From the sequence record SRR31156797_1193: a stretch of 64,000 bases of DNA, one strand, 5' to 3'. Numbering within the stretch: the stretch's first letter is position 1; every line of letters starts with the position of its first letter. Of the stretch, positions 96-38,463 are shown piece after piece. A program made the position numbers and the translations under genes. Below the pieces are notes generated by a model, which saw nothing but the letters and a program-made list of their open reading frames with translations, had not been told where the DNA came from and made no database searches.

Positions 96-1378
96 TCATG
101 CATACTTTGTTGATACAATTTTTGTCTCTACCTTAAATCCTATTATACCAACTAATATCATCATAATACCGCCTGATATTACCAGTATCCATGTGCTTAT
201 TACATCCAACAGCATTCCGGATAATGCTAATGCAAATGGCAGCACCAGTTTAATAATGCTTAAGCATATGCTTAGTACTCGCCCTCGAAATTCATCTGAT
301 ACTGTTTTCTGCAGGTACTGTAGGAATGGTATATCTATCATTGCAATTGTGAATCCAGTGAAAATCATTGCTATTACATAATATATTAGATAAAATACTG
401 AACTCATACCAATAAACACTGAAACAGGCAATCCCAGCAGGACTACATTTATCCCCAACAGAATACTTGCAAATAAAATGAGCTTAACAAATGGGATTTT
501 CTCTATTATTTTCTGAATAAATACTGCTCCGATGACAATACCAACGGAAAATCCGCCTTCAGTAATACCAAGACTTTTGGCAGACATCTTCAAAACTTCA
601 TTTACGATATATGGGATGGGTACTGCTGCTGATGCACCGAGGAAGAAATTGAAGCTAATAGCTATAATTATCACAAATGTTATATCTTTTCGCTTCTTTA
701 TATATTCCAATCCATCCTTTATATCTTTTCTGAAATTAATATCCTTAGAATCATCTTCCTCTGTATTTGCTACATTATATTTGAAGTCTATGAACATTTC
801 CATTACTGCTGAAAAAATAAATGAAATACCGTTAAACAGTATAAATGCCTTTATGTCAATGAGAACAAATACAATACCGCCAACTATCGGTGCAATAATA
901 TTAGAGAATGCATTTATAGCTGAGCTGACAGAGTTTAGGCTGATTAGTTTCTTCCTCTGTCACCAGATTTGGTTTAGCAGCCTCTATACATGTATTAAAG
1001 AGTACCGCCAGAGTGCTGGAAATAAATGTGCTTATATAGATTATCCACAAGTTGATATCTATATATTGACATATCAAAAAAACGAATATAAATAACAGAC
1101 CGTTCAGTATATCGGTTATAACTACTATTTGTTTCTTATTCAGCTTATCAACTAATACACCAGAAAATGGCGCAAAAAGAATAATTGGCAGATAACCGTA
1201 TATTAATGTTAGTGCATAATTTAGTCCAGAGCCAGTCAATTTTAATATATACAGTCCAATAGCAAAAGTATATACTGCTGAACCGATTACTGAAATAAAC
1301 TTACCAGCACAAAACAGTATATAGTTTGATGTTTCACGATTAGCTTTAAATAGTTTTTTGATTCTTGATAATCTCCAT
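96..1378 (-). pseudogene. MFS efflux transporter (DHA3/MefA-like), disrupted by two frameshifts
   Basis: ATG at 1378 reads MEIIKNQKTI* and a shifted frame continues FKANRETSNYILFCAGKFISVIGSAVYTFAIGLYILKLTGS. A second shift near 950 joins ...PNLVTEE to KLISLNSVSSAIN... and the 96..803 ORF. MFS motif GVLVDKLNKK and DEFRGRV are present. Confidence 0.8.
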
Positions 1379-2053: not shown

Positions 2054-2103
2054 ATAATCTTGATTGATATTTTAATGTGCAGCATAAAAAGAATAGGAAT
2101 GTG

Positions 2104-2817
2104 ATGAATAAAAAACAAAAGGGTAGAATAAAATTTGTTGCAGTATTTTTTGGGTTATTGATTATACTTGTTACTGTCTTTTACATATACGTATATGATT
2201 ATTATAGAGCAGATGAATATGCAAAAGAGATTATTGCACAGATTGATGAAAGTACCATAACGGATGATTACATAGTTTTTTATCCAGAGGTTAATGCAGA
2301 TAAACATAAAGGATTAATATTCTATCCTGGTGCAAAAGTTGAGCATACTGCTTATGCACCTCTTCTTAAGAATCTATCACAAGAGGGCATTACCTGTGTA
2401 CTTATTAGGATGCCATTTAATCTAGCTTTTTTTGGTATGAACTTAGCTGATGAAATATATAGTGAACTTCCAGAGATAACGGATTGGTATATTGGAGGAC
2501 ATTCACTAGGCGGAGCAATGGCTAGCAGCTATGCACGAGATAACACTGAAAAGTTAAGCGGAGTTATTCTGCTGGGAGCATATCCTGCAAGTCAATTGGA
2601 TATTCCTATTCTTACTGTTTATGGCAGCGAGGATGAAGTTTTGAATAAAACAAAGCTGATAAAAACTCATACAATGCTGGAAATTGTGGGAGGAAATCAT
2701 GCTTATTTTGGCAACTATGGTGAGCAGGAGGGCGACGGCATAGCTACTTTTACTAGAGAAGAGCAGCAGGAGGAGACGATAAATGCTATAATATCGTTTC
2801 TCAAACAGGAATACTAA
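2104..2817 (+). CDS. membrane-anchored alpha/beta hydrolase (carboxylesterase-like)
   Basis: N-terminal TM helix, FYPGA oxyanion motif, GHSLGG nucleophile elbow, GSED and GGNH catalytic motifs. Confidence 0.85.
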   Translation: MNKKQKGRIKFVAVFFGLLIILVTVFYIYVYDYYRADEYAKEIIAQIDESTITDDYIVFYPEVNADKHKGLIFYPGAKVEHTAYAPLLKNLSQEGITCVLIRMPFNLAFFGMNLADEIYSELPEITDWYIGGHSLGGAMASSYARDNTEKLSGVILLGAYPASQLDIPILTVYGSEDEVLNKTKLIKTHTMLEIVGGNHAYFGNYGEQEGDGIATFTREEQQEETINAIISFLKQEY

Positions 2818-2825
2818 TATAAATA

Positions 2826-2854
2826 TTGACATTATTTAGACTAAAAGTTACAAT
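2826..2854 (+). promoter_or_regulatory. sigma-A promoter
   Basis: TTGACA-17 nt-TACAAT. Confidence 0.8.
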
Positions 2855-2877
2855 AGTTCAAAATCAAAGGACAAAGA

Positions 2878-2958
2878 ATGAATTATAAAAAAACAGCATT
2901 ATATTCAACAACAACTAATCCGGCAAATCATTGGTGGGATTATTTGATATGCTGTTAA
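2878..2958 (+). CDS. putative Trp-Trp attenuation leader peptide MNYKKTALYSTTTNPANHWWDYLICC (26 aa)
   Basis: AAGGA RBS, ATG 2878, TGG TGG at 2932-2937, TAA 2956-2958; lies between the promoter and a terminator. Confidence 0.7.
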   Translation: MNYKKTALYSTTTNPANHWWDYLICC

Positions 2959-3020
2959 TTATTTGATTGAATTAAATATTAATTAATAGCAGTTAATTCT
3001 TTGTTAGCTGTTATTTTTTT
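2950..3020 (+). terminator. attenuator: antiterminator 2950-2991 overlapping intrinsic terminator 2985-3020
   Basis: Terminator AATAGCAGTTAA-TTCTTTG-TTAGCTGTTATT plus T run; TGCTGTTAATT (2950-2960) can pair with AATTAATAGCA (2981-2991). Confidence 0.7.
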
Positions 3021-3033
3021 AGGAGAATTTATT

Positions 3034-3819
3034 ATGGATAATAGTTTATTGGAGAGTTATTACAATAATTATGACGAGGAAAATCGATTAAAGTGCAGAC
3101 ATGGCATGGTAGAGTTCCTGACAACTGTTAGATATGTGGAGAAGTATCTGCAAAAGGGAATGAACATATGTGAAATTGGTGCAGGAACAGGACGCTACAG
3201 CCATTATTTCGCTGATAATGGATATGAAGTAGATGCTGTGGAGCTGGTAAACGCAAATATTGAGACCTTTAAGCAAAAAATGAATAATAGACAGAAGCTG
3301 ATTATAACTCAAGGCAATGCATTGGATTTATCTTACTTTGATGATGAAGCTTATGATATCACTTTGTTGTTTGGTCCAATGTATCATCTCTATAATGATA
3401 GTGATAAGTTAAAGGCTTTATCCGAGGCACTACGAATCACTGGCAAAAATGGTTTAGTTTTTGTGGCATACTGTATCAGTGATGCAACTCTTGTACAGTA
3501 TGGTTTTGTTCAGTAAAACATTCATAATTTAGTGCAGAAGAATATGCTTAATATGAATGATTATAGCACCATTTCAAAACCTGTTGACATTTTTGAAATG
3601 GTAAGAAAAGAAGATATTGATAAATTGAACAGTAAGTTTGCAGTGAAGAGACTGCATTATGTTTCAACTGATTTGTTTGCTAATTATATACGTGACACAA
3701 TTGAAAAAATGGATGATAAAACTTTTGAAATCTATATGAATTATCATTTCGCTGTTTGTGAGCGTGAAGATATGTATGGTATGACTAATCATACACTGGA
3801 TATTTTAAGAAAATTATAA
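3034..3819 (+). pseudogene. class I SAM-dependent methyltransferase split by an in-frame TAA (3514-3516)
   Basis: AGGAGA RBS, motif I EIGAGTG, GPMYHL; ORFs 3001..3516 and 3532..3819 are in the same frame and separated by a single stop. Confidence 0.8.
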
Positions 3820-3847
3820 TACAATATCTATAGATTGCGGAGGGAAC

Positions 3848-4501
3848 ATGGATTTAGAAAAGATAAACGAAATAGCATATAAATTAATGGGCAATAGAAA
3901 GGCGCACAATGAGAGAGAAATAGGGGGGATATATTATCATGGGCAGAGAACTGCCAGCCTTGCAATAGAACTTAGAAAGCTGATAAATCTAAACGATAAT
4001 TCTAATGATGATATTATCATGGCAGCTTGTATTCTGCACGACTGTGGAAAGGGAATAGAACCACATGGGATTTACGGCGCTATTATTGCAGAGGAAGCAA
4101 TAAAAGACATTGTAACGCCTTTAGAATCGACTGTAATTTGTGAAATCATTTATGAACACAATAATAGAAAGCCTGATTCATGTGATTTATCCGAGGCTAT
4201 AAAGATAGTACAGGATGCAGATATGATTGATCATTTTGGTACATATGAGATATGGATGAACATTAATTATTATGTGCATACAAATGGGACTATTCAGGAT
4301 ATGATTTATTATTATAGAGAACATCATGAATCATTTATTGAGAAAAACAGAAAGCTCATAAATTACGATATTAGTAAAAATATATTCGATGATAGAGTGA
4401 AATTTCAGAAATCATATATTTCAAGATTAACTGTGGAGGGTAACGGCGGTATATATCATAAAGACAGAATGATAAAAAACGAAGGACTAGGAGTAAAATG
4501 A
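3848..4501 (+). CDS. HD-domain metal-dependent phosphohydrolase
   Basis: YYHGQRT...LHDCGK...HG...EHN...QDAD signature. Confidence 0.85.
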   Translation: MDLEKINEIAYKLMGNRKAHNEREIGGIYYHGQRTASLAIELRKLINLNDNSNDDIIMAACILHDCGKGIEPHGIYGAIIAEEAIKDIVTPLESTVICEIIYEHNNRKPDSCDLSEAIKIVQDADMIDHFGTYEIWMNINYYVHTNGTIQDMIYYYREHHESFIEKNRKLINYDISKNIFDDRVKFQKSYISRLTVEGNGGIYHKDRMIKNEGLGVK

Positions 4502-4980
4502 ATTTAGTAAAGGAAAATATAAATAATGATATTGCTGCAATAATTGCTAAGTGGAGCTATACTGATGAATACTCTTTCTATAATATTATAAATGAAGAGG
4601 GGATAATGGATGAATTGCTTAATAGCGAGTACTATGCTGTTTGTGATGGAATTGAGCTAATTGGGTTTTACTGTATAGGCAAGGAATCACAAGTTCCAAA
4701 TGATGCTGTTAATGAAATATACGCAGATGATAGATATATTGATATTGGGCTGGGCATGAAACCGGAATTAACAGACAGAGGATATGGCAGAGAATTTGTA
4801 GGGTTCATTATGGAATGTACAAAGGAAGAATATGATAAAAAGAAGTTGAGACTGACAGTTGCGGCCTTTAATCAACGAGCCATGAAGGTATATAGGGCTT
4901 TGGGATTTAATCAAATAGCTAGTTTCGTAAGAGAAAGCGATAATATTGAATTTATCATTATGGTTTGTGATATTTTGTAA
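4498..4980 (+). CDS. GNAT family N-acetyltransferase
   Basis: IGLGMKPELTDRGYG acetyl-CoA motif, NQRAMKVYRALGF; ATGA overlap with the HD gene. Confidence 0.85.
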   Translation: MNLVKENINNDIAAIIAKWSYTDEYSFYNIINEEGIMDELLNSEYYAVCDGIELIGFYCIGKESQVPNDAVNEIYADDRYIDIGLGMKPELTDRGYGREFVGFIMECTKEEYDKKKLRLTVAAFNQRAMKVYRALGFNQIASFVRESDNIEFIIMVCDIL

Positions 4981-5001
4981 CAGATATTTTGTAATCTATG
5001 T

Positions 5002-5030
5002 TTGCAAATTATATTTACCTGTGATATACT
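5002..5030 (+). promoter_or_regulatory. sigma-A promoter with extended -10
   Basis: TTGCAA-17 nt-TATACT preceded by TGn. Confidence 0.7.
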
Positions 5031-5055
5031 AACTTAAATTTGTTAGGAAGTTTGT

Positions 5056-5115
5056 ATGAAAAATATTATATTAACAAGTGCAAAGTATTATTATTACATT
5101 ATGCCGTATGCGTAG
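5056..5115 (+). CDS. putative Tyr attenuation leader peptide MKNIILTSAKYYYYIMPYA (19 aa)
   Basis: AGGAAG RBS, ATG 5056, TAT TAT TAT TAC at 5086-5097, TAG 5113-5115; directly upstream of tyrS. Confidence 0.85.
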   Translation: MKNIILTSAKYYYYIMPYA

Positions 5116-5184
5116 TGTGATATTTTAGTGTAAAAATCGCAGAAGCAGTACGGCTTATTCAGTTAGTGAATAGGTCGTTTTTTT
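5103..5184 (+). terminator. attenuator: antiterminator 5103-5154 overlapping intrinsic terminator 5150-5184
   Basis: Terminator ACGGCTTATTCA-GTTAG-TGAATAGGTCGT plus T run; GCCGTATGC (5103-5111) can pair with GCAGTACGGC (5145-5154). Confidence 0.8.
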
Positions 5185-5248
5185 GTGTAAAAAACAGATT
5201 CTCATATTTGCAATAAATATATTGAATAAAAGAGTAAGGAGTAAGAAA

Positions 5249-6460
5249 ATGACTATTGATGAAAAGGTACAGATACTAGTAAAAGGAGCAAGCCAGCATT
5301 CGGATATTGATGAGATTAAAGAGAAATTCTTGAACGCTGAGACTGAGAACAGAAAGCTGATAGTGAAGCTGGGGCTTGATCCAACAGCCCCTGATATTCA
5401 TTTGGGGCATGCTGTGGTCTTGAGGAAAATCAAGCAGCTACAGGATATCGGATGTAAGGTGGTTATTGTAATTGGCGATTTTACTGGTGCTATTGGTGAT
5501 CCAACAGGTAAATCAAAGACTAGGAGACAACTCACAAAAGAGGAAATAGCAAAGAATGCTGAAACTTACCAGGAGCAGATATTCAAGATAATAAATTCTG
5601 ATTTATCTGATGTGCGTTTTAATAGTGAATGGCTGCAAAAACTAAATTTTCGTGATGTCATAGACTTAGCATCAAGAACCACAGTAGCCAGAATGCTGGA
5701 GAGAGAAGACTTTAAGAATAGATACACCAACAACATGCCTATTGGGCTCCATGAATTTTTCTATCCTTTAATGCAGGCATATGATTCTGTTGCCATTGAA
5801 GCAGATATTGAACTAGGCGGAACAGACCAGACATTTAATATCCTGATGGGTCGTAAGATTCAAAAGGAATTCGAGCAAAAGCAGCAGATTACAATCTTTA
5901 TGCCGCTTTTAGAGGGTATTGATGGAGTGAAAAAGATGAGCAAAAGTCTGGGCAATTATGTTGGAATATATGAAAAACCGTCTGTCATGTTTGAGAAGAT
6001 TATGAAAATTCCAGATGATCAGATAATAAAATATTTTGAACTTTGCACAGATATGATGCCTTGGGAGATTGAAGAGATAAAGGAACAGATGAAAGAGGGG
6101 ACGAATCCCCGAGATATAAAAATGAACTTAGCGAAAGAGATAGTAAAGCTTTATCATGATGATGATAAGGCTAATGAAGCGGTTGATAATTTTAAGTTGG
6201 CATTTCAAAAGGGAATAGCTCCAGATAATACACCAACGTTGTTAATATCAAATGAGGAAAATGCAGGTGAAAGTATAATAATTTCACTGATTGATGGAGG
6301 TTACTATTCTTCAAAAAGCGAACTACGTAGATTGTTTAAACAAAATGCCGTTTCTATTAATGGAAATAAGGTAACCGATGCCAGAGATATTAGGGGAATT
6401 AAAGATGAGGATATATTAAAAATCGGTAAGTCCAAGTATTTTAAACTATCATTGAAATAG
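5249..6460 (+). CDS. tyrS: tyrosine--tRNA ligase (type 2, TyrZ-like)
   Basis: KLGLDPTAPDIHLGH (HIGH), YPLMQAYD, GGTDQ, KMSKS, C-terminal S4 domain; AAGGAG RBS before ATG 5249. Confidence 0.97.
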   Translation: MTIDEKVQILVKGASQHSDIDEIKEKFLNAETENRKLIVKLGLDPTAPDIHLGHAVVLRKIKQLQDIGCKVVIVIGDFTGAIGDPTGKSKTRRQLTKEEIAKNAETYQEQIFKIINSDLSDVRFNSEWLQKLNFRDVIDLASRTTVARMLEREDFKNRYTNNMPIGLHEFFYPLMQAYDSVAIEADIELGGTDQTFNILMGRKIQKEFEQKQQITIFMPLLEGIDGVKKMSKSLGNYVGIYEKPSVMFEKIMKIPDDQIIKYFELCTDMMPWEIEEIKEQMKEGTNPRDIKMNLAKEIVKLYHDDDKANEAVDNFKLAFQKGIAPDNTPTLLISNEENAGESIIISLIDGGYYSSKSELRRLFKQNAVSINGNKVTDARDIRGIKDEDILKIGKSKYFKLSLK

Positions 6461-14784: not shown

Positions 14785-15058
14785 GATAAAGTGTTGACGG
14801 AGATAGGCAATATCTTAGGATATCTATAGAGAGCTGGCGGTTGGTGGAAAGCTGGTGCTATCATTATTGCAATCACTCTTGAGCTGTTCCTTGAAATTAC
14901 GTTTGGTAAAAGTAGAGGACACCGGTTAATCCCGATATAGATTTGTGGGCTTGATAGAGCCTAGAGGTGGTTTTTTTATTTATAAAAAAACAAGATGAGT
15001 GGTACCGCGTAGTTAATAACTGCGTCTCTTCATAGGATGTTGAGACGTGGTTTTTTTG
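14785..15058 (+). ncRNA. T-box riboswitch, specifier probably ATC (Ile)
   Basis: GA motif, AGAGA bulge (14828-14832), GGTGGAA apical loop, specifier A-ATC-A-CTCTTGAG (ATC 14872-14874), stem II AGTA/GAA, T-box AAGATGAGTGGTACCGCG (14992-15009), terminator CTGCGTCTC...GAGACGTGG-T7. Confidence 0.92.
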
Positions 15059-15136: not shown

Positions 15137-15622
15137 ATGCAAAGGATTATTTCATTTTTAGCTGCAAATGAAGTTGGTGTACTTAGCAGGGTTTCCGGAT
15201 TACTAAGCAAAAGAGGCTTTAATGTGGAGAGCGTGACTGCCGGTGTTACCAGTGACCCAAATGTCAGCAGGATTACATTGATGCTGCATGCAGATGACAA
15301 GATTATTGAACAGGTAATAAAGCAGTTTGCAAAATTACTGGATGTCATTGCAATCAAGGAACTTCCTGTTGAAAAATCCACATCCAGAGAATTAGCTCTT
15401 ATTAAAATGTCAACAATAGGAGTGGATAAAGAAGTATTATGTGATAGTATTATAACCAAAAAAGGTATGATAGTGTCTATGGGTGATGATTACGTTACTG
15501 CACAGTTCACAGGCTCTGCAGAAGGAATTAACAATTGCATTGCTGCAATGAGTGAAAATAAGATTATAGAAATAGCCAGAACGGGATTAATAGCGATGGA
15601 ATCCAGTAGTGTTAAGCTATAG
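15137..15622 (+). CDS. ilvN: acetolactate synthase small subunit
   Basis: ACT domain NEVGVLSRVSGLLSKRGFNVES; EIARTG. Confidence 0.93.
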   Translation: MQRIISFLAANEVGVLSRVSGLLSKRGFNVESVTAGVTSDPNVSRITLMLHADDKIIEQVIKQFAKLLDVIAIKELPVEKSTSRELALIKMSTIGVDKEVLCDSIITKKGMIVSMGDDYVTAQFTGSAEGINNCIAAMSENKIIEIARTGLIAMESSSVKL

Positions 15623-15640
15623 GCAATAAGGAGAATTCTG

Positions 15641-17206
15641 ATGAAAAAGATTCAAATATTCGACTCTACTCTTCGTGATGGAGCTCAGGCAAGGAGCATA
15701 AATTTCTCTGTGCCTGATAAAATTAATATACTTAAGATACTTGATGAGTTCGGATTAGACTATATTGAAGCCGGTAATCCAGCGTCAAACCCAAAAGAAA
15801 GAGAATTCTTTGCATCTGCCAAAGAGTTAGAGCTAAAGAATGCAAAACTGGTTGCATTTGGTTCTACCAGAAGAAAGAACTTAAAGGCTGAAGATGATGC
15901 AGGAGTTCAGGCTCTTTATTCAGCAGGAACGAAGTGTGTCGCAATCTTTGGCAAGACTTGGGATTTGCATGTGACAGATGTGATTAATACCACTTTGGAA
16001 GAAAATCTAGCTATGATTGAAGATACAGTTTCTTTCTTTAAAGATAAGGGAATAGAAGTAATATTCGACGCTGAACATTTTTTTGATGGCTATAAGGCAA
16101 ACAAGGATTATGCAATCAAGGTATTGCAAGCCGCAGAAAGAGCAGGTGCTGATTGCGTAGCTCTATGTGATACCAATGGTGGTGCTACGCCACAATTAAT
16201 TCGTGATGGTGTAAGAGACAGCGTAGAAGCAGTAAATATTCAAGTCGGCATACATGCTCATAACGATAGTGAAATGGCAGTGGCTAATTCCATAAGTGCA
16301 GTTGAGCTAGGTGCAACTCACGTGCAGGGTACTTTTATTGGATTTGGAGAGCGATGCGGCAATGCAAGGCTTTCATCAATAATTCCGAATTTACAGTTGA
16401 AAATGGGATATAGCTGTATTCCGGAAGAAAAGATGGCTCAATTATATTCTGTCAGCAGACAGATTGGCGAGATTTCAAACATTTTCTTTGATGAATCACT
16501 GCCTTACGTAGGCAGAAATGCATTTGCTCATAAAGGCGGTATGCATATTGATGGTATTCAGAAAGCTAAGGGTTCATTTGAACATATTGAACCAGCTCTT
16601 GTGGGCGGAGAGAGAGAATTCCTATTATCAGAGGTTGCAGGTAAATCTGCTATGAGTGCAAAGCTCCAAAAGGATTTCCCAGAGGTTGCAAATGATAAGG
16701 AAAAGGTTGCACACCTGATGAATCTGCTCAAAGAGCTAGAGACCAAAGGTCACAGCTATGAAGGAGCAGAGGGAAGTTTTAAGATGCTGGTTATGAAAGA
16801 ACTTGATATGTACGAACCTCCGTTTAAGCTGATTCATTTCAAAGTGTTTGATGAACCAATGCACCATAACACATTTGGAGCATACGCTGTGGTAAAGGTT
16901 GAGGTTGGTGGAAAGACAAAGATGACAGCAGCAGACGGCAATGGTCCTGTTAATGCATTGGATAAGGCATTGAGAGAAGCACTTTCCGAATTTTTCCCAG
17001 AGCTTAACAATGTTTCGCTGACAGACTACAAGGTAAGAGTATTTGAAACTCATCACGCAACTGAATCAACAGTTCGTGTAATTATAGAATCACACGATGG
17101 AGATGAGTATTGGCGCACAATGGGCGTATCAACAGACGTAATAGAAGCGAGTCTAATTGCTTTAATTGACTCAATTGACTATAAACTTTTAATGAAAGAG
17201 GTGTAA
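15641..17206 (+). CDS. cimA: citramalate synthase
   Basis: DSTLRDGAQ, EAGNPASNPK, AFGST, GKTWDLHV, FDAEHFFDGY: signatures of bacterial CimA rather than LeuA. Confidence 0.9.
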   Translation: MKKIQIFDSTLRDGAQARSINFSVPDKINILKILDEFGLDYIEAGNPASNPKEREFFASAKELELKNAKLVAFGSTRRKNLKAEDDAGVQALYSAGTKCVAIFGKTWDLHVTDVINTTLEENLAMIEDTVSFFKDKGIEVIFDAEHFFDGYKANKDYAIKVLQAAERAGADCVALCDTNGGATPQLIRDGVRDSVEAVNIQVGIHAHNDSEMAVANSISAVELGATHVQGTFIGFGERCGNARLSSIIPNLQLKMGYSCIPEEKMAQLYSVSRQIGEISNIFFDESLPYVGRNAFAHKGGMHIDGIQKAKGSFEHIEPALVGGEREFLLSEVAGKSAMSAKLQKDFPEVANDKEKVAHLMNLLKELETKGHSYEGAEGSFKMLVMKELDMYEPPFKLIHFKVFDEPMHHNTFGAYAVVKVEVGGKTKMTAADGNGPVNALDKALREALSEFFPELNNVSLTDYKVRVFETHHATESTVRVIIESHDGDEYWRTMGVSTDVIEASLIALIDSIDYKLLMKEV

Positions 17207-17209
17207 CAA

Positions 17210-18472
17210 ATGGGAATGACAATGACCCAAAAGATTTTGGCAGACAAGAGTCATTTGGATAAGGTAGAAGTAGGGCAGTTTATTAACTGTGACTTATCTC
17301 TGGTATTAGGTAATGATATTACCACTCCAGTAGCTATCAAGGAATTTGATAAGATGGGATGCAATTGCGTCTATAACAAGTCTAAAGTTGCAATAGTACC
17401 AGATCACTTCACTCCAAACAGAGATATTGAATCTGCGAAGCAATGTAAGTTAATCAGAGAGTTTGCTCACGATAAAGATGTGGAGAACTACTTTGAAGTT
17501 GGTGAGCTGGGCATTGAGCACGCACTGCTTCCTGAAAAGGGATTGGTAGTTGCTGGTGATGTAGTAATAGGAGCTGACTCCCACACATGTACTTATGGAG
17601 CACTTGGTGCATTCTCTACAGGTATTGGTTCAACTGATATGGCTGCTGGTATGGCAACAGGAAAGTGCTGGTTCAGAGTTCCTGCGGCTATTAAGTTCAA
17701 TCTAACAGGTAAATTCTCAAAGCACGTCAGCGGTAAGGACTTAATCCTTCACATAATCGGTATGATTGGTGTTGACGGTGCTCTTTACAAATCAATGGAA
17801 TTTACAGGTCCCGGAGTAGCTAATTTATCAATGGATGACAGATTTACAGTTGCTAATATGGCAATTGAAGCAGGTGCTAAGAATGGTATCTTTGATGTAG
17901 ATGAAAAGACATTAGAATATATTAAGGATCATTCTGATAAAGAACCAAAAGTATTTAAGGCAGATGAAGATGCAGAGTATGAAAGGGTAATAGACATTGA
18001 TTTAGCAGAAGTGCCATTGACAGTTTCATATCCTCACTTACCTGATAACACACGTACTTTTGACCAAATGAAGGAAAAAGTAGAAGTTGACCAAGTCGTT
18101 ATCGGCTCATGTACAAACGGCAGAATATCTGACCTGAAAGCAGCAGCAGATATCTTCCGTGGAAAGAAAGTAAAAAAGGGTGTAAGGGTTATCGTATTCC
18201 CAGGCACACAAAAGATTTATCTGGAAGCTATGGAGTTAGGATATTTCAAGGATATGGTAGAAGCTGGTGTAGTTGTATCTGCTCCAACATGCGGACCATG
18301 CTTAGGTGGACATATGGGAGTGCTGGCAGCTGGTGAGAAATGTGTATCTACAACCAATAGAAACTTCGTAGGCAGAATGGGTGACCCAAAATCAGAGGTT
18401 TACCTAGCAAGTCCTGCGGTAGCTGCAGCCAGTGCATTGACAGGATACATCACTGACCCTAATACATTATAG
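17210..18472 (+). CDS. leuC: 3-isopropylmalate dehydratase large subunit
   Basis: GADSHT, GSCTNGR, CGPCLG, STTNRNF. Confidence 0.96.
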
Positions 18473-18624
18473 AACTTTTATGTAATAAAAGCAGCTAAAG
18501 TGCATGTAATAAAAATGCAGCGATAATCTGACTGCAAAAACGAGGCATACAAATAGCGGTTATACGCCTTATACCGAATATACCGAATTATGACTTGAGA
18601 ATATATTATAAAAGGAGAGATAAC

Positions 18625-19122
18625 ATGATACTAAAAGGAAATGTTTTTAAATACGGTGACCATGTGGATACCGATGTAATTATACCTGCTCAGTACTTAA
18701 CTACAGCAGATCCAGAAGAACTTGCAAAACACTGCATGGCAGATATTGATTTATCATTTGCAGATGAGGTAAAACCAGGGGATATTATTGTTGCTGGGAT
18801 TAACTTTGGCTGCGGATCATCCCGTGAACATGCACCACTTGCTATTAAGGGAAGCGAAGTAAGCTGCATTATTGCAAAGAATTTCGCTAGGATTTTCTTC
18901 CGCAATGCTATTAATATCGGCTTGCCAATCCTGGAGTGCCCTGAAGCAGTAGATGAAATAAACAAAGGTGATGTCTTGGAAGTTGACACTGATAATGGAA
19001 TAATCAAGAATGTTACACAAGGCAAGGAATATACTACACAGCCGTTCCCAGAATTTTTGCAGAATATTATTGCATCAGGCGGCTTAGTCAACTCAATCAA
19101 GAAAGCAAATGGTGAATGCTAA
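18625..19122 (+). CDS. leuD: 3-isopropylmalate dehydratase small subunit
   Basis: [41 protein letters not shown] before ATG 18625. Confidence 0.96.
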
Positions 19123-20189
19123 TGAAAACATTTAATATTGCAGTAATAAAGGGTGACGGTATCGGACCTGAGGTTGTAGATGCAACTATCAAAGTACTAG
19201 ATTATGTAGCCCAAAAGAGAGATATAAAGTTCGAATATAAATACTATCTGGCTGGCGGCTGTGCTATTGATGAAATGAATACGCCTCTGCCACAGGAAAC
19301 TATCGACGGCTGTAAGGCAAGCGACTCAGTACTGCTAGGTGCAGTAGGTGGTGAGAAGTGGGATACACTTCCAAGTCATATGCGCCCAGAGACAGGTCTT
19401 CTTGGTCTCCGTGAAGCTCTGGGACTATTTGCTAATCTGCGTCCTGCAAAGCTGTTTTCTGAATTAGCTGATGCATGTCCGCTAAAGGACAGACTGACAG
19501 AAGGCGGACTGGATATACTGGTTGTTCGTGAGCTGACAGGCGGTATCTATTTCGGTGAAAAGGATAGGAATGATACAGAAGGCTATGATACTCTAAAGTA
19601 TGCTGATTATGAAATCAAACGTATTGCAGATGTAGCATTCAAGGCTGCCCAAAAGAGAAACAGCAAAGTTACATCAGTAGATAAAGCAAATGTATTGGAA
19701 TCATCTAGAGTATGGAGACAATATGTAGCTGAAACTCACAAAAATTATCCTGATGTTGAACTAAATAATATGTATGTTGATAACGCTGCAATGCAGCTGG
19801 TACGCTATCCGCAGCAGTTTGATGTAATAGTTACTGGTAATATGTTCGGTGATATTTTGTCAGACGAAGCTGCAATGATTACAGGTTCTATTGGTATGCT
19901 TCCATCAGCTAGCTTAAGTGCAGGAAAAGTAGGCATGTATGAGCCTGTTCACGGCTCTGCACCAGATATAGCTGGACAGGGAATTGCAAACCCATTGGCA
20001 ACAATTATGTCAGCGGCAATGATGCTTCGCTATTCATTGGATTTGGATGAGGAAGCTGATATAATAGAAGCGGCTGTTAATGAGACTATTGCTAAAGGTG
20101 CCAGAACTAAAGATATTGCTTTGGCAGGCGAAAGCTGTATTTCTACAGAAGAGATGACTCAAAAGGTATTAGAAAACATTAATGCATAA
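19122..20189 (+). CDS. leuB: 3-isopropylmalate dehydrogenase
   Basis: [44 protein letters not shown] overlap with leuD. Confidence 0.97.
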
Positions 20190-20209
20190 TAAACTTGGAG
20201 GATGAATAA

Positions 20210-21871
20210 ATGATTAGTGACAGTGTAAAAAAAGGAATTGACAGAACTCCGCACAGGTCATTGTTCAAGGCAATGGGCTATACAGATAGTGAACTAGAAA
20301 AACCGCTGATTGCTGTAGTACATGCTCACAGCGAGATTGTACCGGGGCATATTCACCTTGACAAGATTGCTAAGGCTGTTTCCGATGGCATTCGTGCTGC
20401 AGGCGGTACACCTGTTATGATGGGAACAATTGGCGTATGCGATGGTATTGCGATGGGTCATGAGGGAATGAGATATTCTCTGCCATCCAGAGAAATTGTT
20501 GCTGACAGCATTGAGTCAATGATTAAGGGTCATGCATTTGACGCTGTGGCTTTTGTACCTAACTGTGATAAAATTGTACCAGGAATGCTAATGGCTGCAG
20601 CAAGAATAAATAGACCATCAATTTTTTGCAGCGGTGGTCCAATGATGCCGGGCAAAGATGCGTGCGGACATGACATTAGTCTGTCAACAGCATTTGAAGC
20701 AGTAGGTAAATATGCTGCTGGGAAAATAACAAAAGAAGAACTAAAAGCATACGAGAATTCTTCATGCCCAGGCTGCGGTTCTTGCTCAGGTATGTTTACT
20801 GCTAATTCTATGAACTGCTTGTGTGAATCATTAGGAATGGCTTTATCAGGTAATGGTACAATCCCAGCTGTTGAGGCTGCCAGAATCCGCTTTGCCAAGG
20901 AAAGCGGCGAACAGCTCATGAAGGTTTTGAAAAAGAAGATTAAGCCAAAAGACATAATGAAGCCAGCATCATTTGAGAATGCACTAAGGCTGGATATGGC
21001 ATTAGGCTGTTCTACCAATTCAGTTCTGCATCTACCAGCTATTGCAAATGAATGCGGTATCGAGCTTAGCCTTGATACAGTAGATATGATTAGTAAAACT
21101 ACACCAAATCTTTGCAAACTATCTCCAGCTTCTTCAATGCATATTGTCGATTTGTACTATGCAGGCGGAGTACAGGCTGTACTAAATCAATTACAGGAGG
21201 CAGGATTGCTGAATGCAGACTGTATGACAGTCAGCGGCAAGAAGATTGGTGAATATGTAGCAGATAAGAAAGTATTTGATATAAAAGTTATCCGTCCTCT
21301 AGATAATCCATATTCAAAGGAAGGCGGTATTGCAGTATTGCGAGGTAATATAGCACCTGATGGGTGTGTAGTTAAGCAGTCAGCAGTAGCACCAGAAATG
21401 ATGGTACACACTGGAAGTGCCAGAGTATTTAACAGTGAAGAGGACAGCATCGCAGCTATCACATCTGGTCAGATAAAGAAAGGCGACGTTGTTGTTATTC
21501 GATATGAAGGTCCATCAGGTGGTCCGGGTATGAGAGAAATGCTTTCACCTACATCAGCAGTAGCAGGTATGGGGCTAGACAAGGAAGTAGCACTTATTAC
21601 AGACGGTCGCTTCTCTGGAGCAACTAGAGGAGCATCAATCGGTCATATTTCACCAGAAGCTGCATCAGGCGGACTAATTAGACTGGTGGAAGATGGTGAC
21701 AAGATAGCTATTGATATACCTAATAGAAATATCGAACTAATCGTTGAAGAAGATATTTTAGACGAAAGGGAGAAGAACTTTAAGAAACCTAAAAAGGCAA
21801 AACTTACCGGCTGGCTAAAAAGGTATGCTAAATTGGTATCATCTGCTGATAAGGGTGCTGTAATCAACTAA
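20210..21871 (+). CDS. ilvD: dihydroxy-acid dehydratase
   Basis: [30 protein letters not shown]. Confidence 0.97.
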
Positions 21872-21884
21872 CAGGAGTAATTAT

Positions 21885-23537
21885 ATGAAGATAAATGGTT
21901 CAAAAATAGTAGTTGAAAGCTTAAAGGCACAGGGCGTTGATACAGTATTTGGTTACCCGGGAGGTGCTGTAATTCCACTATATGATGCTCTTTACGATGA
22001 GCCAGCAATAAAGAATATTCTGCCTGCTCATGAGCAGGGGGCTAGCCATGCAGCTGACGGATATGCCAGAGCAACTGGTAAGGTAGGAGTAGTAATCGCT
22101 ACCTCTGGTCCTGGAGCAACTAATCTGGTAACTGGACTTGCAACAGCATATATGGATTCAGTTCCTGTTGTTGCTATCACAGGTAATGTTCCAAGTGTAT
22201 TACACGGCAAAGACAGCTTCCAAGAGGTTGATATTGTAGGCGTTACAATGCCGATTACTAAGCACAACTATAGAATTACAGATGTAGAGAAGATTTCGGA
22301 TATAATTAACGAAGCTTTTGAGTTTGCCCAAAGCGGCAGACCCGGTCCTGTATTAATTGATATACCAAAGGATATTTTCTATAAGGAATGTGAGTATAAT
22401 GGAGAATATAAAAGCAGAATTGTAAAGGACGAAATGGTTTTGCCTCTAGAGGATATTGTTACAACAATTTCAGAGGCTAATAAACCGGTTATATTCTGCG
22501 GCGGTGGTGTAGTCACATCTGGAGCAGAAGATTTGCTATATGATTTTGCAAAGAAGATTGGTGCACCTGTTGCGTGTTCACTTATGGGTACTGGTGCATT
22601 CCCAAGCGATGATGAGCTATATATGGGAATGGTAGGTATGCATGGTACTATGGCAAGCAATATGGCATTTACAAATTGTGATTTACTGATTGTATTGGGT
22701 GCTCGATTCTCTGACAGAGTAACAGGCAATCCTGATGAATTTGCAAAACATGCAAAGATTATACAAGTTGATATTGATAATTCTGAAATAAATAAAAACA
22801 TTGCGACTACGTACTATGCACTAGGAGATTTAAGCGAAGTGCTTAGTGAAATTTACGAAGCAGTACCTGAAAAAGACCATTCAGATTGGATAGATACCGT
22901 GCATCAATGGAGACAGCAGGATTTGGAGCACACTGATAGTAATCATGTGCCAAAGAAGATATTGGAAGCATCCAGCAAATATCTAGGTGAAAATACCCTT
23001 GTTGTTACTGATGTTGGCCAGCATCAGATGTGGACAGCTCAGTATTTCAAATTTGAAAGACATGACAAATTCTTGACTTCTGGCGGCTTAGGTACTATGG
23101 GCTATGGCTTCGGTGCAGCTGTTGGTGCTCAGGTTGGAAGATTGGACAGGAATGTAATGCATTTTACAGGTGACGGCAGTTTCCGTATGAATATGAATGA
23201 GATGGCTACGGCAGTTAAGTACAGCTTACCTATTGTTACTGTTCTGTTTGATAATAATACTCTAGGAATGGTGCGTCAGTGGCAGACATTATTTTGCAAT
23301 AGCAGATGGTCACAGACTGATTTGCCGCCTATGGATTTTGCAGCAATTGCATTAGCCTACGGTTATAAAAATGCTTGGCATGTAAATACTGTAGAAGAAT
23401 ATGAAAATGCTTTACAGGAAGCATTAAAAGGTGATGGACCAGCACTTATTCAGTGCCATATAGACATTGACACAATGGTTCTTCCAATCGTTCCTCCGGG
23501 AAAAGCTTTGGACAAAATAGTTATGACCAAGACTTGA
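21885..23537 (+). CDS. ilvB: acetolactate synthase large subunit
   Basis: FGYPGG, HEQGA, TSGPGATN, DVGQHQMW, GDGSF...N, GMVRQWQ. Confidence 0.96.
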   Translation: MKINGSKIVVESLKAQGVDTVFGYPGGAVIPLYDALYDEPAIKNILPAHEQGASHAADGYARATGKVGVVIATSGPGATNLVTGLATAYMDSVPVVAITGNVPSVLHGKDSFQEVDIVGVTMPITKHNYRITDVEKISDIINEAFEFAQSGRPGPVLIDIPKDIFYKECEYNGEYKSRIVKDEMVLPLEDIVTTISEANKPVIFCGGGVVTSGAEDLLYDFAKKIGAPVACSLMGTGAFPSDDELYMGMVGMHGTMASNMAFTNCDLLIVLGARFSDRVTGNPDEFAKHAKIIQVDIDNSEINKNIATTYYALGDLSEVLSEIYEAVPEKDHSDWIDTVHQWRQQDLEHTDSNHVPKKILEASSKYLGENTLVVTDVGQHQMWTAQYFKFERHDKFLTSGGLGTMGYGFGAAVGAQVGRLDRNVMHFTGDGSFRMNMNEMATAVKYSLPIVTVLFDNNTLGMVRQWQTLFCNSRWSQTDLPPMDFAAIALAYGYKNAWHVNTVEEYENALQEALKGDGPALIQCHIDIDTMVLPIVPPGKALDKIVMTKT

Positions 23538-34695: not shown

Positions 34696-37600
34696 ATGCA
34701 GGATAATTATACCAGAGAGCTGCTGCAGGAATTGGTTGCTCTTAGATTAAAGATAAAAACGAAAATAAAGCAGGAAAAGGGGAAAGTACCAGTAGTATGT
34801 TCAGATGAAGCACTGATGAATATCTGTAAATTTCAGCCTAAAAAGCTGGAGGATTTCTATTCGATTGCTGGGGTTGGTAAGGCTTTTATCCAGAACTATG
34901 GCGAAGTGTTTCTGGAAGTTGTACTGGCTAAGCAGCCTGAAGCATCAAAGACTGTATCCCTAAGTGATGATATTACAAAAACTTTAAAAGAGTTAGAAAA
35001 ACGTTTGGTCAATATTAACAGACGAAACAGGTTATTAAGGCTTGCTAAGACCTCCAGAAGACATTCATTTGATTTGTACTCTTCTGCAAAGAATGACGAG
35101 CTTAAGGAATTTTTATTTGGGAAAAAGCGTACATTACGCATCTGTGACCTTCGATATTGTACTGATAAAGATGCTGAGCGAGCAAAATATAGGAGACTTA
35201 CTACATTAATAAGAGAAGCGAATATTTCATTGCGTGAAAAGGGGCAGTTTGACCTTTATATAGGCTATCCATTTGTAATTGGTATGCTTAGTAATGCAGA
35301 CTTTCCAATTCGGGCACCATTAGCACTGTTTCCAATTAAAATAAGTAAAGAACCTACCTATATTTCTTTGTCAATCGATACAGATAAAGATATTTTGTAC
35401 AATAATACAATTGTCTTGGCTCACAATAAATTCAACAACCTTCTAAAATCATTGCCTGATAATGAGATTGAGGATATGGACGGTGAACACTTTATAGAGT
35501 TTGTACTGAAATATTATTACAATGAGAAGATAAATATCAGGTATCAGGAGCATGGTATTATACCATTTCACGAATATATGGCTAGTGAATTTCCTAAGTT
35601 TAGTCATGGTGAATTGTATCTGGAGAATTGTGCTGTTCTAGGCGATTTCCCTGTGTATGCCAGCTCGTTGCAGAGAGATTTTAACAGTTTGATTGATAAG
35701 GGAACAGTGAATAAACTTCTTGTTAAGCTGCTGGATGATTTTCAGGAGGCTGATTTATCAGATGATGCTTTCTATGAAGAAAGAACAGAGAATGATAATA
35801 GCGTTGAAATTGATGAAACAAAAATAACTTATATTAACGATTTAAATAATTCTCAGGAAAAGGTCCTAGCGGCTATTAATGAATCTGATGAACTGGTTGT
35901 TCAGGGACCGCCGGGAACAGGTAAATCCCAGACTATTACCAGCATTATTGTGGATTCTGCCTTAAAGGGGAAGAATGTACTGATGGTATCAGAAAAAAAA
36001 GCAGCACTGGATGTAATTCATTCAAGATTAGGCGAGATTTCATCCTATTCACTGCTTCTTGATGACACAAAGAACAAATCTTTATTCTATAATCAATTGG
36101 ACAGAATTCTAAATATACATGGGGAATATATCGCAAGCAGCGAGCTGGAGAATCTATCATCAAGCATAAACGAGAGTTTATCATCATTGAAAACAATCGC
36201 AGATGCATTGTATTCAGCTAATGAATTTGGCGTTGAGATGTATAAGCTCTTTAGAGATAATATGGGTTATGATTTTGCAGAGAAAGAGGATTTTGTAAAG
36301 TATCAATTGCTAAGGGACAATATAGATTCTAGGATGTATGAGTTGGATTATTCTGCGTTGTCTGGCATATATGAAATGTTTGCAAACAAAAAGACAGTTG
36401 GCACGTTGCTTTCATATATCAATATAGGAAAGAAAAATTATTTTCTGCGTCGCATAAAGGAGAACTTGACCGATTTCGAGGTGGCAAGCCTTGCATATGA
36501 CTGGCAGCAGGTTAGGCAGAGTATACTTGATTATAAATCAAAGCCATTCTTTGTCAGATTGTTTAGCAAGGGTAAGTATATTCAGAATGTAAAGCACTAC
36601 TTGGAAAAATATTTTGATAAAGTGGATGCATCATTTACAAAGAATATGACTGAAACTATTGAGAAATCTGATTGTACTATTGATTTAGATAAATATAATG
36701 AATTTTTTGACAGCAAGAAGCTATATAGCGGATTAAGCACACTGGAAAAGAAATATTTCAAAATGATAAGAGGCTTATGTAATAAATTAGAAAGCGACAT
36801 CTATGGTGCAAATGAAGCTGTTTATAATCATATTATTTATACTCATATAGAAAAATTCAGGCATGATAACAAAGACTCACTGTCTATGGTTGATAATTTT
36901 GATATGGTGGTCAGGGAAATTCTGCAGCTGATGGGAAATAAAAAATTACAGACAAAGAAGCTGGCACTATCTAATATGTATACATCTTTACACGATAACA
37001 TGTTTATGTCAAAGAGGTTCAGTGAGATTAAGCGTCAGGCACAGAGCAGACGAAAAATCAGCGTGCATAAATTTGTTGAAAAGTTTAGATTCGAACTATT
37101 TAAGGGGGTTAAGATATGGCTACTAACACCAGAAGTTGTATCTGAAATACTGCCATTGGAATGTGGTATATTCGATCTCGTCATTTTTGACGAAGCATCT
37201 CAGATGTTTATTGAGAAGGGAATACCTTCAATATTTAGAGCGAAGAAAGTTGTTATTTCCGGTGATCATAAGCAATTGCGCCCATCAAACCTAGGAAAGG
37301 GCAGGATAGATTATGATGATGATACAATGATAAACAGCGAAACCAATGCTGCAATAGAGGAAGAAAGTTTGCTTGATTTGGCTAGATTTAAATTTGATGA
37401 AGTTATGCTGAACTATCACTACAGGTCAAAGTATGAGGAACTTATAGCCTTCTCCAACTATGCATTCTACAAGTCCAAGCTGTATGTAACACCTAATGTA
37501 GACATCCCTGATGAACCGCCTATAGGAGTAATCAAGGTGAATGACGGCATGTGGCAGGACAGATGCAATATTTCAGAAGCCAGAGAGGTAGTTAATCAGC

Positions 37601-38463
37601 TTAAGAAATTCTTTGCTCAAAGAAAGCATAATGAAACTATTGGAATAATTACATTTAACAGCAATCAGCGAGATATGATTCTGGATATTATTGATGAAGA
37701 AGCAAGGCAGGACGACGAATTCCGCCTGATGATAACCGAGGAAATAAACAGAGAAGAGAACGGTGAGGACATTGGGCTATTTATCAAGAATATTGAAAAT
37801 GTTCAGGGTGATGAACGTGATGTAATCGTGTTCTCAATCGGTTATGCAAAAAATGAACAGGGCAGAGTGGTGCGGAATTTCGGCTGGCTCAATCAGCGTG
37901 CAGGTGAAAACAGATTGAACGTAGCAATATCCAGAGCTAAGAAAAAAATATTAATAGTAACATCTATCCATCCAACTGAGTTAAGGGTAGACGATTTGCG
38001 AAATGATGGACCAAAATTGTTGAAAAAATATCTGGAGTTTTGCTTTGCAATAAGTTCAGGAAATAAATTGGAAGCGGAGCAGATACTTTCTTCACTGTAT
38101 GATGCAGAGGAGTCAATAGCAAGTATAGGAGATGATGAAGCATTTGCGCAAATCATCAAGGAGTCTTTACAGAGCAAAGGTTATACGGTGAAAGAACAGG
38201 TAGGTATCGGCGGCTACAAGATTGATTTAGCAGTAGTAAACGATGAAACTGGTGAATTTATATTAGGCATTGAGTGCGACGGTAAGCTTTATGGTATGTC
38301 AAAAACTACAAGAGAGAGGGACATTCATAGACAGAAATACTTAGAATCTAGAGGATGGAATATCTACCGTGTGTGGAGCACTAACTGGTGGGAAAATCCA
38401 GAAAGTGAAATTGAAAAGATTATAACGTATATGAACCAGTTGCTAGATAGCAAAGATAAATAA
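34696..38463 (+). CDS. HRDC + DUF4011 + SF1 (Upf1/DNA2-like) helicase + Vsr/MTES_1575-like nuclease fusion
   Basis: N-terminal HRDC-like helices (SDEALMNI...IAGVGKAFIQNYGEVFL), LVNINRRNRLL, RAPLALFP, QGPPGTGKSQT, DEASQ, GDHKQL, HYRS, QGDERD, RLNVAISRAK, C-terminal YKIDLAV...IECDG...RDIHRQKYLESRGW. Confidence 0.88.
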   Translation: MQDNYTRELLQELVALRLKIKTKIKQEKGKVPVVCSDEALMNICKFQPKKLEDFYSIAGVGKAFIQNYGEVFLEVVLAKQPEASKTVSLSDDITKTLKELEKRLVNINRRNRLLRLAKTSRRHSFDLYSSAKNDELKEFLFGKKRTLRICDLRYCTDKDAERAKYRRLTTLIREANISLREKGQFDLYIGYPFVIGMLSNADFPIRAPLALFPIKISKEPTYISLSIDTDKDILYNNTIVLAHNKFNNLLKSLPDNEIEDMDGEHFIEFVLKYYYNEKINIRYQEHGIIPFHEYMASEFPKFSHGELYLENCAVLGDFPVYASSLQRDFNSLIDKGTVNKLLVKLLDDFQEADLSDDAFYEERTENDNSVEIDETKITYINDLNNSQEKVLAAINESDELVVQGPPGTGKSQTITSIIVDSALKGKNVLMVSEKKAALDVIHSRLGEISSYSLLLDDTKNKSLFYNQLDRILNIHGEYIASSELENLSSSINESLSSLKTIADALYSANEFGVEMYKLFRDNMGYDFAEKEDFVKYQLLRDNIDSRMYELDYSALSGIYEMFANKKTVGTLLSYINIGKKNYFLRRIKENLTDFEVASLAYDWQQVRQSILDYKSKPFFVRLFSKGKYIQNVKHYLEKYFDKVDASFTKNMTETIEKSDCTIDLDKYNEFFDSKKLYSGLSTLEKKYFKMIRGLCNKLESDIYGANEAVYNHIIYTHIEKFRHDNKDSLSMVDNFDMVVREILQLMGNKKLQTKKLALSNMYTSLHDNMFMSKRFSEIKRQAQSRRKISVHKFVEKFRFELFKGVKIWLLTPEVVSEILPLECGIFDLVIFDEASQMFIEKGIPSIFRAKKVVISGDHKQLRPSNLGKGRIDYDDDTMINSETNAAIEEESLLDLARFKFDEVMLNYHYRSKYEELIAFSNYAFYKSKLYVTPNVDIPDEPPIGVIKVNDGMWQDRCNISEAREVVNQLKKFFAQRKHNETIGIITFNSNQRDMILDIIDEEARQDDEFRLMITEEINREENGEDIGLFIKNIENVQGDERDVIVFSIGYAKNEQGRVVRNFGWLNQRAGENRLNVAISRAKKKILIVTSIHPTELRVDDLRNDGPKLLKKYLEFCFAISSGNKLEAEQILSSLYDAEESIASIGDDEAFAQIIKESLQSKGYTVKEQVGIGGYKIDLAVVNDETGEFILGIECDGKLYGMSKTTRERDIHRQKYLESRGWNIYRVWSTNWWENPESEIEKIITYMNQLLDSKDK

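Follow-up and report, generated by a model that had tools for sequence, protein, structure and literature searches.

A candidate tryptophan-codon leader-peptide attenuator upstream of a class I methyltransferase operon, with analogous leaders in related Clostridia genomes

We analysed a 64,000-nucleotide stretch of DNA from sequence record SRR31156797_1193 (hereafter the window, low in G+C at 36% and Clostridia-like), in which a short leader separates a promoter from genes for a class I methyltransferase (MTase), an HD-domain phosphohydrolase and a GNAT acetyltransferase. The window leader probably controls transcription by classical ribosome-mediated attenuation, with the supply of charged tRNA-Trp as its signal, and we rate this reading higher for the family of leaders found ahead of related MTase genes than for the window itself. 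We infer that the ribosome stalls, that the stall depends on Trp-tRNA, and in which direction it regulates the genes. The logic of attenuation is textbook knowledge; what is new here is an undescribed leader family, in an unusual phylum, ahead of an unexplained regulon. Leaders of the same logic occur in 50 of the 80 Clostridia genomes sampled, in front of an MTase that is very common and uncharacterised.

The window leader contains the parts of a classical attenuator, namely a short open reading frame (ORF) preceded by a ribosome-binding site (RBS), clustered tryptophan (Trp, W) codons, a terminator and mutually exclusive helices (Table 1). Its promoter matches the consensus at 11 of 12 positions and ranked first among 27 promoter-like sites between 2400 and 5400. 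The second Trp codon of the leader ORF ends 12 nt ahead of the strand designated region 2, and the stop codon at 2956-2958 falls within that region. When ATG-initiated ORFs of 8-45 codons preceded by a Shine-Dalgarno (SD) sequence were collected from both window strands, tandem Trp codons (WW) occurred in 1 of 126, which was the leader ORF. A hairpin followed by a T-run was then sought behind the 13 small ORFs that carried WW or a run of three identical residues, and two had one: the WW leader ORF and an ORF with four consecutive tyrosine codons (YYYY) at 5056-5115. Rfam gave no family match in 2780-3100 even at E <= 10, Trp_leader and the T-box family RF00230 included. A preliminary description of this DNA had proposed a near-consensus promoter, which this analysis bears out (TTGACA-17-TACAAT), and a 26-codon Trp-Trp ORF, an antiterminator and a terminator abutting the RBS, all of which are present with coordinates within 2 nt of those it gave. 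Its labels for the three genes likewise agree with Pfam, the MTase frame carrying an in-frame TAA.

Folding of the leader yielded three helices. Helix 1:2 joins 2892-2899 to 2949-2956 (-17.4 kcal/mol, inner hairpin included), the antiterminator 2:3 joins 2950-2960 to 2981-2991 (-11.2 kcal/mol), and the terminator 3:4 joins 2985-2997 to 3003-3015 in a 13-pair stem (-12.5 kcal/mol) that runs into seven T (3014-3020). The helices are mutually exclusive in sequence, since 2:3 and 3:4 share 2985-2991 and 1:2 and 2:3 share 2950-2956. Directly behind the T tract comes the MTase RBS, AGGAG at 3021-3025, with the MTase ATG at 3034. Folding of the 179-nt leader has z = -2.72, a stability that 2 of 200 shuffled sequences equalled.

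This arrangement suggests the following course of events. Transcription would start at about 2861 and a ribosome would load on the 26-codon leader ORF. With Trp-tRNA plentiful, the ribosome would run on to the stop codon and mask region 2, because the stop codon lies inside that region; if the leader were left untranslated, region 1 would hold region 2. With region 2 masked or held, helix 3:4 would form and RNA polymerase would terminate at 3014-3020, just short of the MTase RBS. If Trp runs short or tryptophanyl-tRNA synthetase (TrpRS) is inhibited, so that little Trp-tRNA is available, the ribosome would wait with codon 19 or 20 in the A site and its front edge at about 2945-2948; helix 1:2 would be broken and 2950-2960 would be free to pair with 2981-2991. 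This 2:3 pairing would block the terminator and allow the MTase-HD-GNAT genes to be transcribed.

Related loci were compared in a set of 80, with MTases 57-64% identical, drawn from one scan of species-representative genomes. Many of them have a strong terminator 20-40 nt ahead of the MTase start. The family leaders share one order of parts: promoter, AAAGGA-type SD, a start codon with conserved sequence around it, an ORF of 29-42 codons, a region-2 element and the terminator. The region-2 motif (consensus GGGCTTACATTGTCATAC) lay at most 300 nt upstream of the MTase in 45 of the 80 loci, and 43 of these leaders make up alignment A2; L037, whose leader is further upstream, and L053, which lacks the 5' half, were excluded. 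A covariance model built on A2, named R1 and covering the sequence plus helices 1:2 and 3:4, added 7 of the remaining 37 loci at E <= 0.013 (L037, L064, L053, L075, L065, L054 and L016), bringing the leaders with the same layout to 50 of 80 in total. Family members score 65-165 bits against R1 and divergent ones 22-41 bits; L011 matched at E 0.25, and L006 has a further short W-containing ORF with a terminator, recognised by eye only. At L058, R1 detected a second leader-MTase-GNAT copy on the opposite strand, the two units (4734-6257, minus strand, and 2793-4331, plus strand) being convergent; since both copies are whole, the leader-MTase-GNAT unit appears to duplicate as a block. At L075 the leader precedes a different MTase gene, which is itself upstream of the family MTase. 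Rfam offered no fitting family for the related leaders (20 loci searched at the gathering score; only noise at E 0.25-10).

The family leaders appear to be translated, and their Trp codon is held in place. The frame set by the conserved start codon (ATG in 41 leaders, GTG in 2) runs through region 2 without a stop in all 43 leaders; the other two frames do so in 9 and 10 of 43. W occurs in 40 of the 43 peptides and makes up 50 of 1474 residues (3.4%). The last in-frame W lies 6-14 nt ahead of region 2 in 37 of the 40 W-containing leaders among the 43 aligned (the distance is 9 nt in 23 leaders and 8 nt in 7), and TGG is in frame throughout at least nine spacing classes. From the start of region 2 to the stop codon there are 24-45 nt. 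Subgroups read region 2 in two different frames, with the upstream TGG still in frame with the start, and conservation of region 2 is therefore at the RNA level. In 11 pairs of peptides of the same length, differences were distributed 65/57/70 over the three codon positions, with 114 nonsynonymous and 30 synonymous codon changes, suggesting that the peptide apart from W is free of amino-acid selection. Only translation, the position of the Trp codon and the position of the stop thus seem to matter. A classical leader peptide should leave just this pattern, whereas a sequence-specific arrest peptide or a functional small protein should not. What the preliminary description had singled out, the tandem WW, is not conserved: at least two W are found in 8 of 43 peptides and adjacent W in one (L033), which is also the only one of the 80 upstream regions with a WW ORF.

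This pattern bears on two other accounts of the peptide. The first takes the leader for an arrest peptide that depends on a drug or metabolite, like those of ermC, cat or tnaC, with W as part of the arrest motif and no hungry codon; we consider this unlikely. A short ORF with alternative helices and a terminator is a layout shared with drug-inducible attenuators, proline or alanine often stands 1-4 residues before W in related peptides, a ribosome trapped at initiation would free region 2 as well because region 1 of the family is the SD and start, and MTase and GNAT are typical classes of resistance enzyme. However, the spacing from proline or alanine to W varies, the residues after W differ as region 2 is read in two frames, and the drift outside W described above is neutral; moreover, trpS in four operons and an adjoining trpA in one point to Trp-tRNA and not to a drug, and the MTase scores far under the Erm cut-off (22 versus 212 bits). 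The second account, that the 26-residue product is itself a functional small peptide, either a signal or the precursor of a modified peptide ending in Cys-Cys, is very improbable. The unit does have its own promoter, SD and terminator, and the peptide a C-terminal Cys-Cys and an aromatic-rich tail; yet related leader peptides conserve no residue beyond W, no gene for a modifying enzyme, exporter or receptor adjoins, and the terminator abuts the RBS of the next gene as in an attenuator.

Helices 1:2, 2:3 and 3:4 are also supported across the family, with compensatory changes in each (Table 1). The covariation score of each helix in A2 was reached by 0 of 500 shuffles; because the A2 sequences are related, these counts are not probabilities. 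When the partner strands were slid by 1-3 columns, merely 20-51% of the A2 cells could pair, and this control, together with several pair types per column, is the stronger argument. A terminator with an energy of -15 to -30 kcal/mol is present in each of the 43 A2 leaders. From the start of its T-run to the MTase ATG there are 16-40 nt in 38 leaders and 63-79 nt in the remaining five. In the family, region 1 is formed by the SD and start codon of the leader itself, and W follows 13-24 codons later. In many relatives TGG overlaps a small hairpin (by eye), around which two A2 subgroups are out of register.

Such strong covariation of three helices could also belong to a structured RNA that works independently of protein, in the manner of a riboswitch, with the ORF incidental. 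The overlap of TGG with the small hairpin and the retention of region-2 nucleotides despite two reading frames would both fit an RNA-only switch, which we nevertheless regard as quite improbable. The ORF is open in every aligned leader, unlike the other frames, its SD and start are conserved, and TGG keeps its frame across the spacing classes; the stretch from region 1 to TGG varies in sequence and length, nothing resembles the core of a ligand pocket, and no Rfam family matches.

How far the family speaks for the window leader is a separate matter. Both stand at the same position, with a promoter on one side and an orthologous class I MTase gene on the other, and they have in common the AAAGGA-type SD, the three-helix logic and an in-frame Trp codon ahead of the antiterminator strand. 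They differ in region 1, which is the SD and start codon in the family and codons 5-8 in the window; in the ORF, which has 29-42 codons in the family, with the stop 24-45 nt past the start of region 2, whereas in the window it has 26 codons and a stop inside region 2; and in the Trp codons, mostly a single W in the family and WW in the window. Because R1 fails on the window, we treat its leader as an analogue at the same position and not as an established homologue; either it has diverged too far in a 36% G+C genome or it has arisen separately. The earlier proposal of a leader-peptide attenuator built on Trp codons is thus supported by analogy with the family, although R1 misses the window leader, and the comparison of upstream regions that had been suggested as a check recovered the ORF, the in-frame Trp and covarying 1:2, 2:3 and 3:4 stems but not the WW.

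Several observations weigh against Trp-dependent attenuation, some in the window and others in the family. R1 with default filters gave no match at 2860-3025 (two unrelated hits had E 0.12 and 0.62), and with filters off on 2780-3060 its best score was 2.4 bits, for the terminator alone. The nearest MTase among the 80 loci is 64% identical to that of the window, and the conservation described above would therefore hold for analogous leaders and not for the window's own sequence. The window terminator is weak and AT-rich, with 2 G-C pairs in its -12.5 kcal/mol stem, and the antiterminator and terminator states are nearly isoenergetic. The MTase gene has an in-frame stop, so the operon may be decaying, and searches of Pfam, NCBIfam, PDB and Foldseek gave no known role in Trp metabolism for the MTase, HD or GNAT protein. 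In the family, WW is not conserved; the majority of leaders have one W, which makes a thin sensor, and in L026, L030 and L080, three of the 43, the peptide contains no W. A ribosome stalled at W in a family leader does not itself cover region 1; because region 1 lies far behind W, an open 1:2 helix during the stall would need queued or re-initiating ribosomes. As TGG overlaps the small hairpin, its conservation could partly be at the RNA level.

The window terminator is weaker than those of related leaders (-15 to -30 kcal/mol), and a consensus terminator scan missed it because its stem has only 2 G-C pairs. This raises the prospect that the small ORF in the window arose by chance in the gap that separates the terminator of the upstream hydrolase gene (2077..2817) from the MTase, or that the arrangement is a decaying remnant without present function. 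The failure of R1, the in-frame stop in the MTase and a split transporter gene nearby would be in keeping with this. We judge it improbable, however, since a promoter with 11 of 12 consensus matches lies between the hydrolase stop and the leader ORF, of 126 small ORFs just 1 has WW, the terminator, stop codon and region 2 are positioned as in a working attenuator, orthologous genes are preceded by leaders built on the same logic, and neither the HD nor the GNAT frame is broken.

Behind the leader, the HD and GNAT genes have intact frames, and the MTase frame is broken by a TAA at 3514-3516, after codon 160 of about 261. Homologues of the MTase are 262 aa long and continue past this position, and the 100 codons after the TAA are still in frame with 36-59% identity to them; the TAA is either a recent nonsense mutation or a sequence error. 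Two ORFs of a major facilitator superfamily antiporter on the minus strand (99-803 and 904-1239) are adjacent and both match TIGR00900, the N-terminal piece also weakly matching Mef(A). They look like pieces of one split transporter gene, which would be the second disrupted gene in a span of 4 kb. Relatives of the MTase are very common, more than 7,900 of 7,999 candidates scored having E <= 0.001. PDB sequence search, NCBIfam, ESM Atlas and Foldseek returned generic class I MTases only. A structure model of the MTase (predicted local distance difference test, pLDDT, 90) had its highest TM-score, 0.76, in Foldseek with the tRNA methyltransferase CmoM, a resemblance between model and structure that may serve as a lead, short of an assignment. 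An Erm-type rRNA methyltransferase was considered and rejected (NF000499, 22.1 bits against a cut-off of 212; Pfam RrnaAD, 17.8 against 24).

Neighbours on the same strand as the MTase, 49 downstream and 19 upstream, were classified with Pfam. GNAT is directly downstream in 22 of 49. Other downstream neighbours were PNP_UDP_1 (three), NUDIX (two) and, once each, HIT, a phosphoribosyltransferase, a type I phosphodiesterase and a fusion of 2H-phosphoesterase with GNAT. A class I W/Y tRNA synthetase follows in 4 of 49 (L033, L046, L052 and L076), and all four are trpS (NCBIfam TIGR00233, 335-362 bits against a cut-off of 177); each of these leaders has two W. Because three of the four are from Faecousia and one from an uncultured Oscillospiraceae bacterium, the trpS cases may represent a single event. 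The spacer between MTase and trpS is 57-67 nt, with no terminator-like hairpin, in L033 (1748-1804), L052 (3775-3841) and L076 (3775-3833). By eye these three spacers share a TTGCAC...TAAAAT-like stretch, which could be an internal promoter giving basal trpS expression beside leader-controlled read-through. In L046 the spacer is 237 nt (3772-4008) and holds a very long perfect hairpin of -94.8 kcal/mol; it looks like an inserted inverted-repeat element. At the leaderless locus L012 the MTase starts 5 nt after trpA (TIGR00262). In L073 (2453-5209) the MTase stands between rimM and a GNAT-trmD fusion gene, TrmD being the tRNA m1G37 methyltransferase; this hints at a possible target of the MTase-GNAT pair in the translation apparatus.

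The HD and GNAT proteins of the window found no counterparts of their own in these loci: tblastn gave 0 of 80 at E <= 1e-5, and BLASTP at E <= 1 gave no HD match and GNAT matches at superfamily level only (best E 0.004). The conserved unit is thus the leader with the MTase, usually some GNAT and often a nucleotide-handling enzyme, and not the exact trio of the window. Two parts of the preliminary description change accordingly. A three-enzyme module does not hold up, as the 80 loci have no close HD or GNAT homologue, though some GNAT follows the MTase in 22 of 49. Its statement that the operon has no obvious Trp function is softened by trpS in four leader operons and by the one leaderless MTase after trpA. 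The detoxification role that it suggested gains no support here, and the neutral drift of the peptide speaks against a sequence-specific arrest such as its alternative trigger, a ribosome-targeting drug, might cause.

One wider reading, which we offer as doubtful, is a regulon in many gut and rumen Clostridia that responds to TrpRS distress: a W-containing leader would sense uncharged tRNA-Trp and induce enzymes that modify amines or nucleotides and so neutralise inhibitors of Trp charging. Its gene set may comprise the MTase and GNAT, variously with HD, NUDIX, HIT or nucleoside phosphorylase, and an extra TrpRS in some species. The inhibitors may be tryptamine from neighbouring gut bacteria, Trp analogues or mimics of tryptophanyl-adenylate; Trp synthesis would play no part. 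Tryptamine is included because it inhibits TrpRS competitively, as described for a mammalian context in PMC12607914. Whether or not this wider reading holds, the leaders give a handle on what the MTase family does, since its members should switch on when tRNA-Trp charging fails. They also form a testable set of regulatory RNAs in gut anaerobes, to which the window adds its own YYYY example ahead of tyrS. If the enzymes act on Trp mimics such as tryptamine, bacterial translation control would be linked to a host-relevant metabolite.

The second codon-run leader of the window lies directly ahead of tyrS. It comprises the YYYY ORF, a hairpin at 5092-5122 and a terminator at 5150-5178 followed by seven T, and it folds with z = -4.44; 5103-5111 can alternatively pair with 5144-5153, a possible antiterminator. 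Rfam found no T-box or fitting family in 4960-5270. The stretch 5056-5249 looks like a Tyr-codon leader-peptide attenuator of an aminoacyl-tRNA synthetase gene in a Bacillota-like genome, and because tyrS, too, has a leader with a codon run, the prior for the WW leader as a true Trp sensor is raised. Were the regulon for TrpRS distress real, the tyrS leader would be a second sign of a lineage that has swapped T-boxes for leader peptides in genes linked to aminoacyl-tRNA synthetases. The window also holds one T-box, its only one, ahead of an operon of ilvN, citramalate synthase, leuC, leuD, leuB, ilvD and ilvB genes (15137-23534, plus strand); T-boxes and leader peptides thus coexist in this genome. 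Elsewhere, 34696-38460 (plus strand) encodes a 1255-aa helicase-like protein with partial matches to the anti-phage proteins ProA (550 bits) and Hhe (409 bits), well below the cut-offs.

Table 1. Positions of leader elements and genes in the window, and of the family helices in alignment A2
Feature	Position	Strand	Details
Sigma-70-type promoter	2826..2854	+	TTGACA 2826-2831, 17-nt spacer, TACAAT 2849-2854
SD sequence of leader ORF, AAAGGA	2866..2871	+	6 nt upstream of ATG at 2878
Leader ORF, 26 codons plus TAA stop	2878..2958	+	from ORF listing; product MNYKKTALYSTTTNPANHWWDYLICC
Tandem Trp codons TGG TGG, codons 19-20	2932..2937	+	proposed sensing codons
Region 1 (5' strand of anti-antiterminator)	2892..2899	+	minimum free energy fold; within leader codons 5-8
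Region 2	2949..2960	+	2949-2956 pairs with region 1, or 2950-2960 with region 3
Region 3	2981..2997	+	2981-2991 antiterminator strand; 2985-2997 terminator 5' arm
Region 4	3003..3020	+	terminator 3' arm 3003-3015 plus T7 tract 3014-3020
Helix 1:2, family	A2 columns 16-25 with 126-135		88% of cells paired; 28 compensatory cells; 7/10 pairs compensatory
Helix 2:3, family	A2 columns 120-132 with 203-215		89% of cells paired; 26 compensatory cells; 7/13 pairs compensatory
Helix 3:4, family	A2 columns 203-213 with 233-243		92% of cells paired; 49 compensatory cells; 8/11 pairs compensatory
Class I SAM (S-adenosylmethionine)-dependent MTase gene	3034..3819	+	Pfam Methyltransf_11/25; 261 codons if read through
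HD-domain phosphohydrolase gene	3848..4501	+	Pfam HD, E 5.1e-10; 28 nt after MTase stop
GNAT acetyltransferase gene	4498..4980	+	Pfam Acetyltransf_1, E 5.2e-8; start overlaps HD stop (ATGA)
Hydrolase gene upstream of leader promoter	2077..2817		
tyrS leader ORF, SD-preceded, 19 codons, four consecutive Tyr codons	5056..5115	+	product MKNIILTSAKYYYYIMPYA
tyrS gene	5249..6460		TIGR00234, E 2.5e-112
T-box	14785..15032	+	Rfam RF00230, 97.9 bits

Most known cases of classical leader-peptide attenuation are in Proteobacteria or Actinobacteria, and most regulate the biosynthesis of an amino acid; Bacillota usually employ T-boxes. The best-known Trp case is E. coli trpL, a short ORF with two adjacent Trp codons near its end, helices 1:2, 2:3 and 3:4 and a terminator before the genes. 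The window leader resembles trpL in its adjacent Trp codons, in its helix logic and in a stop codon that would let a finishing ribosome block region 2. The two have no sequence or model similarity, however, and the genes behind trpL make Trp whereas those in the window encode an MTase, an HD protein and a GNAT; the window's host is moreover low in G+C and Clostridia-like, with a T-box on its ilv-leu operon.

Other leaders of this kind control the translation apparatus. In Streptomyces, the attenuator of the indolmycin-resistant trpRS1 gene has reportedly been studied experimentally. Classical attenuators have been predicted before trpS and leuS in Streptomyces (PMC1262725). As in the four related leader operons that contain trpS, a Trp-codon leader there stands on a gene of the translation apparatus; the phylum is different, and in the present family the constant first gene is the MTase, with trpS occasional and lacking from the window operon.

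Codon leaders have some precedent within the Firmicutes. Bacilli have His leader peptides upstream of hisZ and of hisS paralogues, those of the paralogues being presented in PMC2965389 as the first regular Firmicutes leader peptides, and PMC5794164 describes a Leu-rich attenuator peptide at S. aureus ilvB; as far as these papers were covered, neither deals with a Trp leader or with this MTase. A literature search found, among the results listed, no Trp-codon leader before a class I MTase in Clostridia. So far as these sources go, the His and Leu leaders are like the window leader in using codon leaders in place of T-boxes and differ in amino acid and genes, and the tyrS YYYY leader at 5056-5115 would be a further Firmicutes case of an amino-acid-codon leader. 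In Bacillota, trpS and tyrS are usually controlled by T-boxes, which sense uncharged tRNA. The window leader would answer to the same signal by different means, in about 160 nt that include an ORF and have no T-box match in 2780-3100.

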